Positions 18,182-32,183 of a stretch of 33,142 bases of DNA are shown here, in pieces. The translations under genes were made by a program, and so were the position numbers. How positions within the stretch are numbered: position 1 is the stretch's first letter; each line of letters opens with the position of its first letter. Origin of the DNA: a virus (Duplodnaviria > Caudoviricetes); IMG/VR virus record IMGVR_UViG_3300030330_004871, positions 1-33,142 of that record; one strand, 5' to 3'. The notes beneath the pieces were generated by a model. It had not been told where the DNA came from, searched no databases, and saw only the letters and a list, made by a program, of their open reading frames with translations.

Positions 18182-18209
18182 TTGCATATCCCATTAAAAT
18201 GTATATAAA
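18182..18209 (+). promoter_or_regulatory. Sigma70-type promoter in divergent region
   Basis: TTGCAT-16 bp-TATAAA, with ATCCCAT in the spacer. Confidence 0.5.
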
Positions 18210-18248
18210 AGTTTTATGTTTTTAAAATTAATTAACAAAGAGGTTATC

Positions 18249-18542
18249 ATGAAAAACATAAAAGAAATAGCTGTAATGACAGCTGCTGAAAAGTTAGGCG
18301 AGGCCTTAGTTTTAAACCCTGATTGGGAAGTTAAACCTAAGAGCGTAGTCATGACTCATGTCTTTTCAGTTGAATTTAATGAGTCAACAAAAGAATTGCA
18401 GTTAAGTGTAAATGGAGATGTTTACAAAACTGTAAGAGCAAGAGATATCATGAGTGGAAAAATAAAATTCCACGCAGGTCTTAGCGCTGTAATAGATAAA
18501 TTTAATTTATGGAGTTATGATGAGCCAAAGTCCAATAATTAA
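18249..18542 (+). CDS. Hypothetical protein
   Basis: ACAAAGAGG RBS before ATG 18249. Confidence 0.7.
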   Translation: MKNIKEIAVMTAAEKLGEALVLNPDWEVKPKSVVMTHVFSVEFNESTKELQLSVNGDVYKTVRARDIMSGKIKFHAGLSAVIDKFNLWSYDEPKSNN

Positions 18543-18798: not shown

Positions 18799-18886
18799 GA
18801 CAATTTTTTGTTTAATATTATTTTTGTTACCAGCAAAAGTAATTTTGTTAATTATTGCTGCGTTAGGTTACACAATATTGTTCTAA
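18779..18886 (+). CDS. 35-aa hydrophobic hairpin membrane protein (not in ORF track)
   Basis: MTNLIIKTIFCLILFLLPAKVILLIIAALGYTILF*. Confidence 0.6.
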   Translation: MTNLIIKTIFCLILFLLPAKVILLIIAALGYTILF

Positions 18887-18901
18887 CTAAAGGAGGAAAA
18901 G

Positions 18902-19684
18902 ATGGACAATTTAGTAAAAAATAAATACTTTGAGACAACTGATTACACAAAGTTTAAAAAAGCTAGGGGTAATAGACCGGTTGATCAAGGACACGTATCT
19001 CAATTAAAAAAATTAATTGCAGAAAAAGATCTTAAAGATCCAATACGTGTAAATAAAAACATGGAAGTAATAGATGGACAGCACACGTTACAAGCTAGAA
19101 AAGAACTAGACTTGGTTGTGCCTTACATTATTATTCCTTCTGACGATCCACTTGATGTTGCAAGACTCAACACGGGCAGAAGGAATTGGTCCATGGAAGC
19201 ATACCTAAGTCATCATTGTTCTAGAAACAGATTTGACTATAAAGTCTGTAAACAAAAAATGGATCAATATGGTATCAATGTTGCAGAAGCGATTGTTTTA
19301 TTATTAAAACAATGTTCACTATGGAATAGAATATCCACTGATTTTAAAACAGGACAATTTAAAATTCCTGCAGGTGGTATAGCTAATTGTGATAGGATTG
19401 GGTCAGCTCTTAACCAGCTTAAAAAATATTTTTTAGGTATGGATGATACAAAGAGACGACTTAAAAGATCTATGGTTATGGCTTACATTATAGCCGATAG
19501 ATGCCCAGATTTTGATTTAAAAAGATTTAGGGAGGCCTGTAAAAGTAAATCATCGTGGTTTTTATCGGGAACTAGCACTAAAGATTACATAATGATTATA
19601 GAAAAAATCTATAATAGTGGTCGTAGTAAACATAAAATAAAACTACTTGATTTTTTTGAGTCAAAAGAATATCAAGATCATTAG
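18902..19684 (+). CDS. ParB/Srx-like N-terminal domain protein
   Basis: GNRPV...HV..L...I, PIRVN...EVIDGQHT; AGGAGG RBS. Confidence 0.75.
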   Translation: MDNLVKNKYFETTDYTKFKKARGNRPVDQGHVSQLKKLIAEKDLKDPIRVNKNMEVIDGQHTLQARKELDLVVPYIIIPSDDPLDVARLNTGRRNWSMEAYLSHHCSRNRFDYKVCKQKMDQYGINVAEAIVLLLKQCSLWNRISTDFKTGQFKIPAGGIANCDRIGSALNQLKKYFLGMDDTKRRLKRSMVMAYIIADRCPDFDLKRFREACKSKSSWFLSGTSTKDYIMIIEKIYNSGRSKHKIKLLDFFESKEYQDH

Positions 19685-19915: not shown

Positions 19916-19953
19916 ACCCGCAAGTTGGATGGTTAACCTTGAACTTGGGGTTG

Positions 19954-21211: not shown

Positions 21212-21318
21212 TGGTGTATCTGGTGTATCTAAAGAACTATTATCTAATAATACCAACACTTTTAGACCATTTTTATGGTGTATCTATGGTGTATCTATGG
21301 TGTATCCCGGATACACCA
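21212..21318. repeat. TGGTGTATC iteron-like array
   Basis: Direct copies at 21212, 21221, 21276, 21287 and 21298; inverted copy at 21310. Confidence 0.9.
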
Positions 21319-21412
21319 GTCTTGCGGGAACTTGATCGAATAAATTTCAGGTAGTTACTTTTTGATGAAATAATCTATATAGTAGAAATATAATGAACAA
21401 AAAGAAAAAATA

Positions 21413-21934
21413 ATGGGTGGGTTAACTAAAAAAGAGTTAAGAACTGAAAAAGATTTAACTCAAAAACAAAAAATGTTTGTTGAGATTATGGTGCAAGATC
21501 ATGGACAAATCACACAAGCTGAAGCTTTGAAGAGAGCAGGATATGATTGTAAAGATATAAATACAGCTAGATCTACGGCTTCCCAATTATTAAACAGAAG
21601 AAAAAATCCACATATAGCAAAATATTATGACAAAAGATTTGAACAAGAAATTAAAAAATATGAGAGTGACAATCTCAGACGTTACAAAAGATTTGAAAGA
21701 TTAGCTGATAAGGCTGAAAAAAAAGATCAATACGCAGCTGCAATTAATGCTGAGTATAGATCAGGTCAATTAGCTGGTGCGTTCATTGATAGAAAAGAAG
21801 TTAGAGTAACTGGTTTGGAGGGAATGTCACGTGAGGAACTTGAAAGTAAACTCAAAGAACTTTCAGAAAAAATCGATGGTTATAATGCAAAAACCATTGA
21901 GCCTGAAGAGACGGCTGTATCTGAAGAGGGCTAG
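21413..21934 (+). CDS. terS: Terminase small subunit
   Basis: LTQKQKMFV...A..RAGY...ASQLL....PHI HTH signature; C-terminal 'MSREELE..L'. Confidence 0.8.
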   Translation: MGGLTKKELRTEKDLTQKQKMFVEIMVQDHGQITQAEALKRAGYDCKDINTARSTASQLLNRRKNPHIAKYYDKRFEQEIKKYESDNLRRYKRFERLADKAEKKDQYAAAINAEYRSGQLAGAFIDRKEVRVTGLEGMSREELESKLKELSEKIDGYNAKTIEPEETAVSEEG

Positions 21935-22317: not shown

Positions 22318-22719
22318 ATGACAATAAACGCAAGAGAATCTAGACTTTGGCAAAAGGTTAAGAAAGGACTTAACAAATGTTTTTTAACTCGCATAGAATC
22401 TAGCACAATCAATGGTATTCCTGATATTCATGGCGTAAGTAAATCTAAAGTTTTTTGGATTGAACTTAAATCTGATGAAGCTAATTATCCTAAATTAAAT
22501 AAATGGCAAATAGTTTGGATTAATAAATATATTAAAGCTGGTGGGATTGTATTTATCCTCGATGAGACCCTCTCGAAGAGGTCTCTTAAACTTTACAGAC
22601 CGGTGTCCGTGTTTACTGATCCTCGTTCCCTCGTGTCGTTTGCCTCGTTCTCGTTCCCGTTACAATGGCTAACGGTGCAGGAGACCATCCTGCGGGAACT
22701 GGAAGCTCGGGCAGCATGA
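22318..22719 (+). CDS. Holliday-junction resolvase / VRR-NUC-like PD-(D/E)xK endonuclease
   Basis: ESRLW, RIES...GIPD, WIELK and Q..W......GG. Confidence 0.8.
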   Translation: MTINARESRLWQKVKKGLNKCFLTRIESSTINGIPDIHGVSKSKVFWIELKSDEANYPKLNKWQIVWINKYIKAGGIVFILDETLSKRSLKLYRPVSVFTDPRSLVSFASFSFPLQWLTVQETILRELEARAA

Positions 22720-22834
22720 TCCTCGTTTCTCGTTCTCGTCCTCGTTCTCGTTGGGAACACGACCACGGACCATCCAGCGAAGGCAGCAGCTCAGGCAGCA
22801 GCTGGTGGGAATTCCCTTTCACCTGCCCCTCGTT
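22622..22834 (+). repeat. CTCGT(T) short-repeat cluster 1 in a GC-rich island
   Basis: About 10 co-oriented copies, e.g. CCTCGTTTCTCGTTCTCGTCCTCGTTCTCGTT. Confidence 0.85.
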
Positions 22835-22888
22835 TCTTTTTACTCTTTGTTAGTTAACGGGGGGCTGGTAAAAGGGATCCTCCTGCTG
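22796..22888. ncRNA. Candidate structured small RNA (long hairpin)
   Basis: 22813-22834 pairs with 22856-22877 (20 of 22 pairs), plus an outer CAGCAG/CTGCTG helix. Confidence 0.5.
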
Positions 22889-22902: not shown

Positions 22903-22931
22903 TTGACTTATATCCCATGAGGTCTTATGTT
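22903..22931 (+). promoter_or_regulatory. Sigma70-type promoter
   Basis: A-tract, then TTGACT-17 bp-TATGTT with TATCCCAT in the spacer. Confidence 0.75.
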
Positions 22932-23125
22932 AGACTTGCGCACTTCAGGAGTCTTGGACCATGATGGCTAATACAGGGTTGATCACTGCTCTGGCTTGAA
23001 ACAAATAAAAACTGAAGTGACGCTAATAAGGTTTCAAAGTGCCATAATATAGTTGATACACTTTGGTAGTTTGCAAGTTTCCTATTTCACTAAACTTGCA
23101 CTAACAAAATAACAAAGGAGAGCAA

Positions 23126-23320
23126 ATGCCAAAGTATGTGGTAAACGTTGATATGGATTCACCCCGTGAAGAAGGTGAACATATTGAAGAGAAATTTAAA
23201 AATGGAATCGAAGCCCCGAACGAACACGAAGCTGAACTGGTTGTCGACAAGTTCGTAAAAAATCAAATGTACGGAGGTCCGTACTATTCGATTTCAAAAG
23301 CGGAGGGCGAAGATGAGTAA
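23126..23320 (+). CDS. Small acidic early protein
   Basis: 64 aa; AAGGAG RBS. Confidence 0.75.
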   Translation: MPKYVVNVDMDSPREEGEHIEEKFKNGIEAPNEHEAELVVDKFVKNQMYGGPYYSISKAEGEDE

Positions 23321-23628: not shown

Positions 23629-23826
23629 CTCGTTCTCGTTGTCGTTTAGTGAGGGACTTATTTCATTGAATGTCTGCCATCCCAGCAGCACGGGCAGCTT
23701 CTGATGGGCGCTCTCGTAATGTATTTAGTTTTGTTGTTATTGTTCCCAAGTACAACTTTGCTGGTGACTGGAATTCTCGTACTGGGGGTGATTGGTGCTT
23801 TCTTTTAACCTCGCTCGTACTGGGGG
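23629..23826 (+). repeat. CTCGT short-repeat cluster 2, including 2x CTCGTACTGGGGG
   Basis: Copies at 23629, 23635, 23713, 23776 and 23814. Confidence 0.75.
23704..23808 (+). CDS. 34-aa hydrophobic hairpin membrane protein (not in ORF track)
   Basis: MGALVMYLVLLLLFPSTTLLVTGILVLGVIGAFF*. Confidence 0.5.
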   Translation: MGALVMYLVLLLLFPSTTLLVTGILVLGVIGAFF

Positions 23827-24463: not shown

Positions 24464-24510
24464 CTTATCCAATATTAATTGGTGTAAATTAACTAAACAA
24501 AGAGGTCTAT

Positions 24511-24840
24511 ATGACACAAGCAGCCAGACGACTAAAGCAAGAGGAAAAAAAAATAGTTCTTGCTTATGTTCAATTAAAGCTAAGACAAAACAGACTATCT
24601 AAAGAGTTAGATACAATGAAACAAAACATTGTTGATTGCTTTGATAGAACAAAACAAAACTTAATCATTGTTCAAGATGAAAGTGGTAATAGTTTTGGAT
24701 TGCAAAAAATAAATCGTAAGAGAAAGAAATTTGAAACAGCAAATTTCAAGATTGCTCATAATGATTTATATAATAAGTTCACAACTGAAATAGCTTATTG
24801 TGAATACAAAGCGATTGGAGAAAACAATGTCCAACAATAG
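24511..24840 (+). CDS. Hypothetical coiled-coil protein
   Basis: 109 aa; ACAAAGAGG RBS. Confidence 0.75.
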   Translation: MTQAARRLKQEEKKIVLAYVQLKLRQNRLSKELDTMKQNIVDCFDRTKQNLIIVQDESGNSFGLQKINRKRKKFETANFKIAHNDLYNKFTTEIAYCEYKAIGENNVQQ

Positions 24841-25100: not shown

Positions 25101-25126
25101 ACCAATGGCGCAACTGCGCCATTGGT
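25101..25126. repeat. Perfect 12-bp inverted repeat
   Basis: ACCAATGGCGCA-ac-TGCGCCATTGGT. Confidence 0.85.
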
Positions 25127-29867: not shown

Positions 29868-32183
29868 ATGGCTGTAGAGAAAAACAACGAAATTGTAGAA
29901 GAAGAAATCAAAGAGGAACCAGAGGGTTTACCAATTGACGTTACTGTAGAAGGTGAAGACGAAATTGTTGAGGAATCTTTACAAGATGATTTTAATGCTA
30001 ATCTTGCTGAAGATATGGATGAAAGAACATTATCTTCTATGGCTAGTGATTTAATCAGTGAATATAAAAAAGATAAATTATCTAGAAAAGAATGGGAAGA
30101 AGCTTACATTAAAGGTTTAGAATTATTAGGCACAAAATATCAAGAGGTAACGAGACCTTTTAGAGGTGCTAGTGGAGTCACACATCCGTTATTAGCTGAG
30201 TCTGTTACACAATTTCAAGCACAGGCTTACAAAGAATTAATACCATCTGATGGTCCTGTAAGAACAAAAGTTGTAGGTTTGCAATCACCACAAGTAGAAG
30301 CTCAAGCAGATCGTGTAAAAGAATACATGAATTTTTTATTAATGGAAGAGATGGAAGAGTATACAACTGACATGGATCAAATGTTATTTTATTTACCCTT
30401 GTCCGGTAGCACGTTTAAAAAAGTGTATTACGATGCATTACTTGGAAGACCATGCTCTAAATTTATACCAGCAGAAGATCTAGTGGTTCCATACTACGCT
30501 TCAGATTTAAAAGATTGTGAAAGAATTACACACGTAATTAAGATGACTGAAAATGAGGTCACAAAAAAAGTTGCAGCAGGATTTTACAGAGATGTTAAAT
30601 TGATGACTCCAACACAACAAACAGATAGAGTTCAACAAAAAGTAGATGAGCTACAAGGAGTAAAAAAAACAGAGTCTGATAATCTGCACACAATACTTGA
30701 AATGCACGTGGATCTTAATTTAGATGATTATGAAAATTTTGATGACAAAGCTAAAAAAATTAAAATTCCTTACATTGTGACTATAGATGAGGGATCAGGA
30801 GAGATATTATCTATTTACAGAAATTACAAACCTAATGATATCTCTTACGCACGAATAGAATATTTTGTACACTTTAAATTTTTACCAGGGTTAGGATTCT
30901 ATGGTTTTGGTTTGACACATATGATAGGTGGTTTAAGTAGAGCTGCAACACAATCACTAAGACAATTGATTGATGCAGGTACTTTAAAAAATTTACCAGC
31001 AGGATTTAAATCAAGAGGTATTAGAGTAAGAGATGATGATCAACCTATTCAACCTGGTGAGTTTAGAGACGTGGATGCACCTGGAGGAAATATAAGAGAT
31101 CAGTTTTTTAATCTTCCATTTACGGAACCATCTACAACTTTATTTCAATTATTAGGTTTTGTTGTACAAGCAGGACAAAAATTTGCAGCTATAACAGATT
31201 CAAACATCGGTAACGATGTACAAAATAGAGCTGTAGGCACTACAATCGCTCTAATGGAGCGTGGTTCACGTGTTATGAGTGGTGTTCACAAACGTTGTTA
31301 CTATGCAATGAGGTTAGAATTTAAAATTTTAGCAAAAATTTGTCAAGAATCGTTACCACCTGAGTATCCGTACGATGTTTATGGTGGTCCAAGACAAATT
31401 AAACAAGCAGATTTTGATGAAAGAGTCGATATTTTACCGGTAGCAGACCCAAATATTATGTCTATGGCGCAAAGAGTAACTCTAGCACAAACACAATTAC
31501 AAATTGCACAGACAAATCCACAAATTCATAACATACACGAGGCTTACAGACGTGTTTATGAAGCTTTAGGCACGAAACAAATAGAAGCAATTTTAAAACC
31601 TGCACCAAAACAACCTGAACCCATGGATCCTGCGAAAGAAAACGCACGTGCATTGCAAATGCAATTGTTAACTGCCTTTGAATTTCAAGATCATGATGCA
31701 CATATAGCTGCTCACATGGCATTTATGGCATCAAGAATGGTACAAATTAATCCACAAGTGTATGCATTAATGCAATCACACATTTCAGATCACATTTCAT
31801 TCAAAGCAAAGGCACAAGTTAGAGCAGCAATGGCAAATAATTCTGAAATGCAACAGATGGCACAACAAAATCCAGAACAATTCCAGATTTTGTTTGATGC
31901 AGAGGTTGCAAAAGTTGCTGCACAGATAACACAAGAGCTTGTTCAAACAGAATTAGCTACAAATTCAGCAAAACAAGATCCATTAGTAAGAATTAAACAA
32001 CAAGAGGTAGATTTAAGGGCAATGGATATGCAAAGAAAGGCAGAAGAAGTTAAATTCAAACAAGATCAGGAAAACATTAGAGCTGCAGCAAGATTAGATT
32101 ACGATTATGATAAACTTGCACAACAAGATCAACAATCTGATGAAAGATTAGATATAGCGAGAGATAAACTTGAGAAAAAATAA
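29868..32183 (+). CDS. Portal protein
   Basis: 771 aa downstream of terL; SRKEWEE, HPLLAE..QFQA, GSTFKKVYYD, FYGFGL and a Q-rich coiled-coil C-terminus (P22-like barrel). Confidence 0.88.
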   Translation: MAVEKNNEIVEEEIKEEPEGLPIDVTVEGEDEIVEESLQDDFNANLAEDMDERTLSSMASDLISEYKKDKLSRKEWEEAYIKGLELLGTKYQEVTRPFRGASGVTHPLLAESVTQFQAQAYKELIPSDGPVRTKVVGLQSPQVEAQADRVKEYMNFLLMEEMEEYTTDMDQMLFYLPLSGSTFKKVYYDALLGRPCSKFIPAEDLVVPYYASDLKDCERITHVIKMTENEVTKKVAAGFYRDVKLMTPTQQTDRVQQKVDELQGVKKTESDNLHTILEMHVDLNLDDYENFDDKAKKIKIPYIVTIDEGSGEILSIYRNYKPNDISYARIEYFVHFKFLPGLGFYGFGLTHMIGGLSRAATQSLRQLIDAGTLKNLPAGFKSRGIRVRDDDQPIQPGEFRDVDAPGGNIRDQFFNLPFTEPSTTLFQLLGFVVQAGQKFAAITDSNIGNDVQNRAVGTTIALMERGSRVMSGVHKRCYYAMRLEFKILAKICQESLPPEYPYDVYGGPRQIKQADFDERVDILPVADPNIMSMAQRVTLAQTQLQIAQTNPQIHNIHEAYRRVYEALGTKQIEAILKPAPKQPEPMDPAKENARALQMQLLTAFEFQDHDAHIAAHMAFMASRMVQINPQVYALMQSHISDHISFKAKAQVRAAMANNSEMQQMAQQNPEQFQILFDAEVAKVAAQITQELVQTELATNSAKQDPLVRIKQQEVDLRAMDMQRKAEEVKFKQDQENIRAAARLDYDYDKLAQQDQQSDERLDIARDKLEKK

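Follow-up and report, generated by a model that had tools for sequence, protein, structure and literature searches.

By fold and alignment, a GC-rich non-coding stretch of the virus record analysed here (a fragment of 33 kb, 33,142 nucleotides, in the following 'the window') contains a real, conserved plus-strand stem-loop, and the loop and the gene 24511 (gene B) leader, as judged from the comparison of related sequences, co-evolve. We regard it as probable (roughly 0.6) that the hairpin belongs to a plus-strand antisense RNA, derived from the 3' end of a probably late terminase small subunit (terS) operon, which would occlude the ribosome-binding sites of early genes. A wider proposal, in which such a late RNA would read a common leader signature, silence dispersed early genes in trans as an early-to-late translation switch based on base-pairing, and be retuned between AGAGG and AGGAG forms from one lineage to another, is considerably less certain and is put forward tentatively.

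The virus fragment and its gene neighbourhood

Among 50,697 phage records, the large terminase of the window has its best match in Pelagibacter phage HTVC023P (69.6% identity), and the genes present include those for PolA, primase, helicases, terS and portal. The window is treated here as a fragment of an HTVC023P-type pelagiphage; a scan of bacterial genomes returned two matches, both in unrelated genera, which do not bear on the host. HTVC023P-type phages are described as the most abundant known group of marine phages, with early genes without known function (PMC12753301; 10.1101/2019.12.14.876532), and are reported to be lytic and to lack integrases (10.1101/2019.12.14.876532).

The hairpin, a predicted RNA element that spans 22799..22888 when its variable outer helix is included, lies between a VRR-NUC/resolvase-like nuclease gene directly upstream (22318..22719, plus strand; the label is our own, from weak endonuclease and Hjc matches) and a promoter-like site at 22903, beyond which small genes and then the large terminase gene (terL) are found. 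The operon that would hold the hairpin in its 3' region starts with terS (21413..21934, plus strand). Among relatives the distance between the hairpin and the nuclease gene varies widely, and the open reading frames overlapping the hairpin gave no family match. Approximately 190 nt of non-coding sequence (22932-23100) separate promoter 22903 from gene 23126, and relatives carry varied, structured-looking inserts there. Upstream of terS, at 21214-21310, tandem GGTGTATCT repeats are present, with a further copy before terL near 25124; they are candidate pac or origin iterons.

Around the hairpin there is also a strand-polarized cluster of eight CTCGTT hexamers (22622..22834, plus strand), and more are found in the window at 23629-23640 and 24237. 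The hexamers occur on the gene strand only, in a cluster of about 2.5 kb from the nuclease gene to gene B (G004, 18/19, at 53.8-56.2 kb; G003, 12/12, at 48.3-50.0 kb). At the equivalent place in HTVC023P, AACAACGAA is present three times, in the opposite orientation. The cluster is a possible packaging, entry or nascent-RNA signal.

Fold and conservation of the hairpin

The conserved stem is formed by a GC-rich 5' arm (22813..22834) and a 3' arm (22856..22877), and 20 of its 22 positions are paired as the earlier note had described (one pair being G·U), with two 1x1 mismatches, C·A and U·U. In the window the folding z-score is −6.1 on the plus strand and −6.5 on the minus strand, with none of 200 shuffled sequences as stable, and −6.2 when the hairpin is folded as DNA. 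The loop (22835..22855), complementary to early-gene leaders over the Shine-Dalgarno sequence and the A-rich tract preceding it, is U-rich and largely unpaired, with an opening cost of 1.7 kcal/mol. The segment 22843-22857, previously singled out as the complement of the leaders, is exposed in 13 of its 15 nucleotides, the last two (22856-22857) being part of the stem (unpaired probability, 0.1 and 0.0).

In a first set of 80 loci, fetched by means of the nuclease gene, the hairpin was present in 79, the remaining locus being truncated, and in a redundant set of 279 window-like loci, 263 had it after the VRR-NUC-like gene. When the set was enlarged to 331 loci, an automatic hairpin caller gave 243 positives among the 281 window-like loci and 0 among the 50 HTVC023P-like ones. 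Among the window-like loci missed by the caller, 18 were recovered by a broader pattern and two by the model R1 at 55 bits, the others being two isolates, HTVC027P and 023Pt_psg01, and the 16 loci that make up the L137 group, in which there is no hairpin. The 243 called hairpins are redundant, with 125 different contexts and 57 different loops among them. A search with model R1 gave no convincing copy for HTVC023P (one match, E 0.74), HTVC027P, 023Pt_psg01, DSL-LC04 or G006. When only the stem was used as a pattern, all 78 related matches enclosed a U-rich CTCT loop, and the 28 unrelated ones did not.

Across 49 distinct hairpins, 97.6% of 735 alignment cells in the stem are paired and 8 of 15 pairs show two-sided changes, a degree of covariation exceeding that of 500 out of 500 shuffles and of every slid control, for a structure that was itself derived from the same alignment. 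Thus, conservation in relatives, which the earlier note had proposed as a check, was found, together with compensatory changes in the stem.

Two more familiar roles were considered and rejected. An intrinsic terminator is not compatible with loops of 13-24 nt in the relatives and with the complete lack of a U-tract after the 3' arm (0 of 125 distinct contexts), and the hairpin does not appear in a terminator scan of the window. The boxA antitermination consensus has a G directly before the CUCUU core, and this G is found in 0 of 49 distinct hairpins.

In two loci of a more distant lineage (L360 and L364) another GC hairpin is found approximately 730-740 nt past the nuclease gene; its loop is U-rich and has CCTTTC at its end. 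The lineage without hairpin (L137, L138, L139, L259 and L293, the latter being G006) provides a natural comparison set.

Complementarity between loop and leaders in the window

All three leader matches of the earlier note were confirmed. The loop pairs with 18228-18242, in the leader of 18249 (gene A; leader, 18228..18251, plus strand), at 15 of 15 positions with one G·U, and with 24489-24504, in the leader of gene B (24489..24513, plus strand), with one bulge; the match at 23100-23120, by the first gene past the hairpin, 23126 (leader, 23109..23128, plus strand), is partial, with nine contiguous pairs and a separate block of six. When the 42 leaders of the window were ranked, those of 18249 (−17.3), 24511 (−15.8) and the ParB-like 18902 (−15.0) came on top. 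The leader of 18902 (18884..18904, plus strand), a candidate target in addition to those named earlier, outranks that of 23126 (−12.5); among relatives it gave a mean of −14.8 over 30 pairs, with a permutation p of 0.035 for pairs that were not de-duplicated. The opening cost of the target leaders is 1.5-3.6 kcal/mol, versus that of the loop given above. A further match, to terS codons 4-8 (21422, 14/15), was rejected as a target, since the mean was −8.5 kcal/mol and −14 or lower was reached in 10% of 83 pairs.

In the comparison with shuffled loops, also proposed in the earlier note, the match was only modestly above chance, for the best three leaders taken together (sum equalled by 11 of 1000 shuffles, p 0.011) as for the best single leader (61 of 1000, p 0.06); with the core held fixed, the corresponding values were 5 and 30 of 1000. 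In addition, a site internal to a coding region, at 30641 (−19.2), beats every leader of the window. On these two grounds the case made by the window alone is only suggestive.

As for the products of the two genes with the highest-ranking leaders, gene B (24511..24840, plus strand) encodes a 109-residue protein of no named family, predicted to consist of a long helix, a hairpin and a helix, and is highly conserved (810 relatives). Searches gave no Pfam match above cut-off and no named Atlas cluster, and the best PDB values were E 0.2 and Z 4.2. There is a weak similarity to YqaJ/RecE-like exonucleases in their C-terminal part, 7 of 28 homologues weakly matching a RecE-like PHROG, and the protein could be a stand-alone interaction module. 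Gene A (18249..18542, plus strand) encodes 97 residues, with no family found by search and a poor predicted model (pLDDT, 64).

Co-variation of loop and leaders among relatives

In many relatives the leader of gene B contains a near-perfect complement of the loop, extending over the Shine-Dalgarno sequence and the spacer to the start codon with up to 16 contiguous pairs. Of 97 distinct window-like cases, 84 have their best same-strand antisense site to this leader within the hairpin, as against 0 of 29 HTVC023P-like ones; among the 13 misses, two are hairpins overlooked by the caller, and the window is a true miss, the best antisense site to its own B leader falling outside the hairpin. In four long contigs the B leader ranks 2/92, 3/81, 1/89 and 3/68, with the A leader in the top six in three of them, and the best-two leader sum was matched by 6, 13, 0 and 0 of 150 shuffles, respectively. 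In a fifth contig (G007), the loop of which has no CTCT core, the top leader is that of an AGGAG-type early gene (2 of 150 shuffles), in a ranking that excludes gene B, as this was missed by the ORF caller. The 10-mer AACWAAGAGG has eight matches in six hairpin-bearing contigs, all at the A or B leaders or in the loop (coordinates read by eye), and none in the four hairpin-less genomes HTVC023P, HTVC027P, 023Pt_psg01 and G006.

Cognate loop-B leader duplexes are more stable than permuted ones (−16.9 versus −15.4; 84 pairs, p 5e-5). The median p was 0.002 when each loop and each leader was used once, and phylogenetically independent pairs gave 17 better, 4 worse and 3 tied (p 0.0036). The leader of the first downstream gene co-varies more weakly (22:9:4, p 0.015). 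For the leader of gene A and that of gene 23983 (E), the preference for cognate duplexes ceased to be significant once the pairs were de-duplicated (median p 0.12 each). The independent pairs were 5:2:3 for A and 13:16:2, with no co-variation, for E, and the terS leader, used as a control, gave p 0.66. These p values are nominal, several target sets having been compared; the trees were built from short proteins, and L251 was excluded from trees and pair tests because of a mis-called start.

The co-variation which had been suggested as a check was thus found for the 24511 leader. Of the targets named in the earlier note, gene B stands by co-variation, the position of 23126 is weakly supported, and 18249 is retained on account of its conserved complementarity.

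The changes in the loop are also informative. Loops without CTCT are combined with an AGGAG-type B leader in 5 of 5 combinations, as opposed to 4 of 62 among the CTCT-bearing ones; examples are found in the L140, L294 and L092 group. In L024 the lengths of the A-tract in loop and leader match. Note that in the VRR-NUC tree the loops without CTCT are grouped in a single clade of weak support, with their B proteins scattered, so that this 2x2 table may reflect few events, and that four combinations (L096, L194, L297 and L279) are counter-examples. The L137 group (16 loci, no hairpin) keeps gene B, mostly with an AGGAG-type leader, and a gene A homologue was not detected in 17 loci of this group, some of them too short to be decisive. 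In HTVC023P the A-rich leader motif occurs six times and its complement is absent; since no HTVC023P-like locus has the hairpin, the leader motif does not need it.

Transcription context and proposed mechanism

A sigma70-like promoter with an ATCCCAT spacer box (22903..22931, plus strand) is found just downstream of the hairpin. Sigma70-like promoters at 18182, 22903, 23923 and 24433 have in common an ATCCCAT/ATGGGAT spacer box in either orientation, which is also present in relatives and in one early promoter of HTVC027P, and which is a candidate operator through which a phage regulator would control early transcription. The earlier statement that each target is the first gene behind a promoter is to be read with care: the sites are consensus-like only, a promoter scan yielding 25 sites versus 28.9 in shuffles, with 22903 among them and 18182 and 24433 not, yet 22903, 18182 and 24433 all carry the common box.

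With a permissive pattern, an early-type promoter is found 15-353 nt past the stem in 124 of 125 contexts. With the promoter in this position, early mRNAs would not carry the hairpin, and, there being no U-tract either, the hairpin would have to be transcribed from a start upstream of it, the simplest case being transcription together with the terS operon from a promoter-like site at 21365-21394. In HTVC027P terS and terL are classified as Late and gp35 and gp37, between them, as Early (PMC12753301). The hairpin and gene B were not detected in HTVC027P, so that the timing is carried over by synteny only; on this analogy, the hairpin RNA is likely made late.

In the proposed mechanism, transcription of the 3' end of the terS-VRR-NUC operon, likely in the late phase of infection, would yield an RNA containing the hairpin. 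With its loop exposed, this RNA would base-pair with early-gene leaders at their ribosome-binding sites, mainly with the leader of gene 24511, and presumably block the translation of these genes. For the leaders downstream, pairing might take place either in cis, if transcription reads through, or in trans. The leader of 18249 lies 4.6 kb before the hairpin, with a terminator-like site at 19953 in between, and would therefore be reachable only in trans, an action on the A leader to which conservation, as opposed to co-variation, lends support. If the mechanism is true, it would represent an early shut-off mechanism in a lytic phage, and it would mark genes B and A as genes whose late silencing matters.

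A different arrangement is seen in HTVC027P (L082, at about 13690) and in L426-L486, where the stop codon that closes the last early gene is directly followed by a CCTTTCT or CCTCTCTCT tract. The tract complements the early leaders of its own lineage, and switches appear to match; a crude test, with unreliable start calls, gave 13 of 40 with at least 7 pairs (p 0.046). It is a possible independent analogue of the hairpin loop.

Alternative explanations

The earlier note had left open that the site acts on the minus strand, as a decoy mimicking the leaders, or is the ribosome-binding site of a minus-strand gene. In the window the hairpin is indeed about equally stable on both strands, and a minus-strand start codon is at a usable distance in 19 of the 49 distinct hairpins. 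However, the stem alignment contains 141 G·U versus 24 A·C appositions and the plus strand folds better in 47 of the 49, so that, with the stem covariation, the decoy reading fails; as to a gene, 19 of 49 is a minority, the window itself has no usable start codon, and the minus-strand frames, of 1 to 115 codons, share no common length, those of the window being without a PHROG match. We therefore consider a function of the minus strand highly improbable. The plus-strand antisense reading is instead supported by the stem covariation, the strand asymmetry and the loop-leader co-variation, unevenly across the targets that had been named. The possibility that host mRNAs are the main target of the loop, or that it is a general anti-Shine-Dalgarno sink dampening host translation, would agree with the resemblance of its core to the 3' end of 16S rRNA. 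Against this stand the co-variation of the loop with a leader of the phage and the GUUAGUU extension, the match of which is an A-rich tract specific to the phage, making this reading, too, very unlikely.

Somewhat more weight is due to explanations in which the pairing is incidental, each of which we nevertheless judge unlikely. The hairpin might form in single-stranded DNA, as part of a signal for packaging, entry or replication, the loop being an inverted copy of the leader module whose similarity would be kept by recombination rather than by pairing. The polar CTCGTT repeats, which form a GC-rich block of about 2.5 kb beside terS and extend into coding regions, the stability of the fold as DNA and the mosaic gene B tree, indicating frequent exchange, are in line with this, and G·T is tolerated in DNA hairpins too. 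The repeats are, however, kept in the lineage that has no hairpin, so that hairpin and repeats are separable, and the loop, whose complement takes in both the Shine-Dalgarno site and the spacer, changes along with the B leader instead of keeping one sequence. Alternatively, the RNA may have a local job, as a processing site, a 3' stabilizer, a Rho-linked end of the terS operon or a protein-binding loop, with leader pairing as a by-product. Its position directly past the last gene of the operon, the lack of an intrinsic terminator, the conserved 1x1 mismatches and the modest single-genome statistics would all fit; such a job would leave unexplained that the loop co-varies with the B leader and with neither the terS nor the 23983 leader, and that AACWAAGAGG is confined to the A and B leaders and the loop.

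Comparison with known systems

A description of this hairpin was not found in the literature searched, and the passages of PMC9599517 that were examined do not mention noncoding, intergenic or promoter elements. Forty-four candidate RNAs linked to Pelagibacterales phages are reported in PMC10690425; in the tables examined, as distinct from the alignments, the loop motif was not found; the hairpin may be among the anonymous candidates of that study (Fremin 2023).

Antisense control in phages is best known from temperate immunity regions (PMC12197685). The c4 RNA of P1/P7 displays in a loop the complement of the region around a ribosome-binding site in an mRNA of the same phage, and by binding there it prevents translation (PMC12197685; PMC8198154), and corresponds to Rfam family RF01695 (PMC2864571). 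In contrast to the temperate phages with c4, the HTVC023P-type group is reported to be lytic (10.1101/2019.12.14.876532). The likeness to c4 drawn in the earlier note holds as a concept, the hairpin loop being computed to complement the region around a ribosome-binding site, but does not extend further. The fold of c4 is multi-stem with two recognition loops, whereas the hairpin consensus is one long helix with one loop. There is no match to RF01695, Rfam giving 0 matches at E≤1 in the window and, in six relatives, only a sub-threshold match to a plant miRNA (25.7 bits versus 95). Within the 33 kb fragment, no icd/antirepressor PHROG or Pfam match and no immunity region is found near the hairpin, and, unlike with c4, the targets predicted here are small, separate genes, each with its own promoter.

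RsaA, RsaE and RNAIII of staphylococci are anti-Shine-Dalgarno sRNAs with C-rich loops. In RsaA, an unpaired pyrimidine loop seeds pairing with the Shine-Dalgarno regions of several mRNAs (PMC3961350). The unpaired pyrimidine loop of the hairpin would likewise seed pairing with such regions, but it additionally reads a phage-specific A-rich tract, and the hairpin is without terminator or Rfam match, whereas these host sRNAs have their own promoter and terminator. In T4, leader hairpins hide the ribosome-binding site on long early transcripts, locally, and so silence late genes early. Masking of a ribosome-binding site in dependence on transcript length, as a timing device, would be common to both, with the difference that pairing by the hairpin would be long-range or in trans, mediated by the loop, and would silence early genes late. 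With trans-encoded sRNAs the hairpin shares a conserved single-strand structure, an exposed seed and the co-evolution of this seed with the leader of gene B (17:4).
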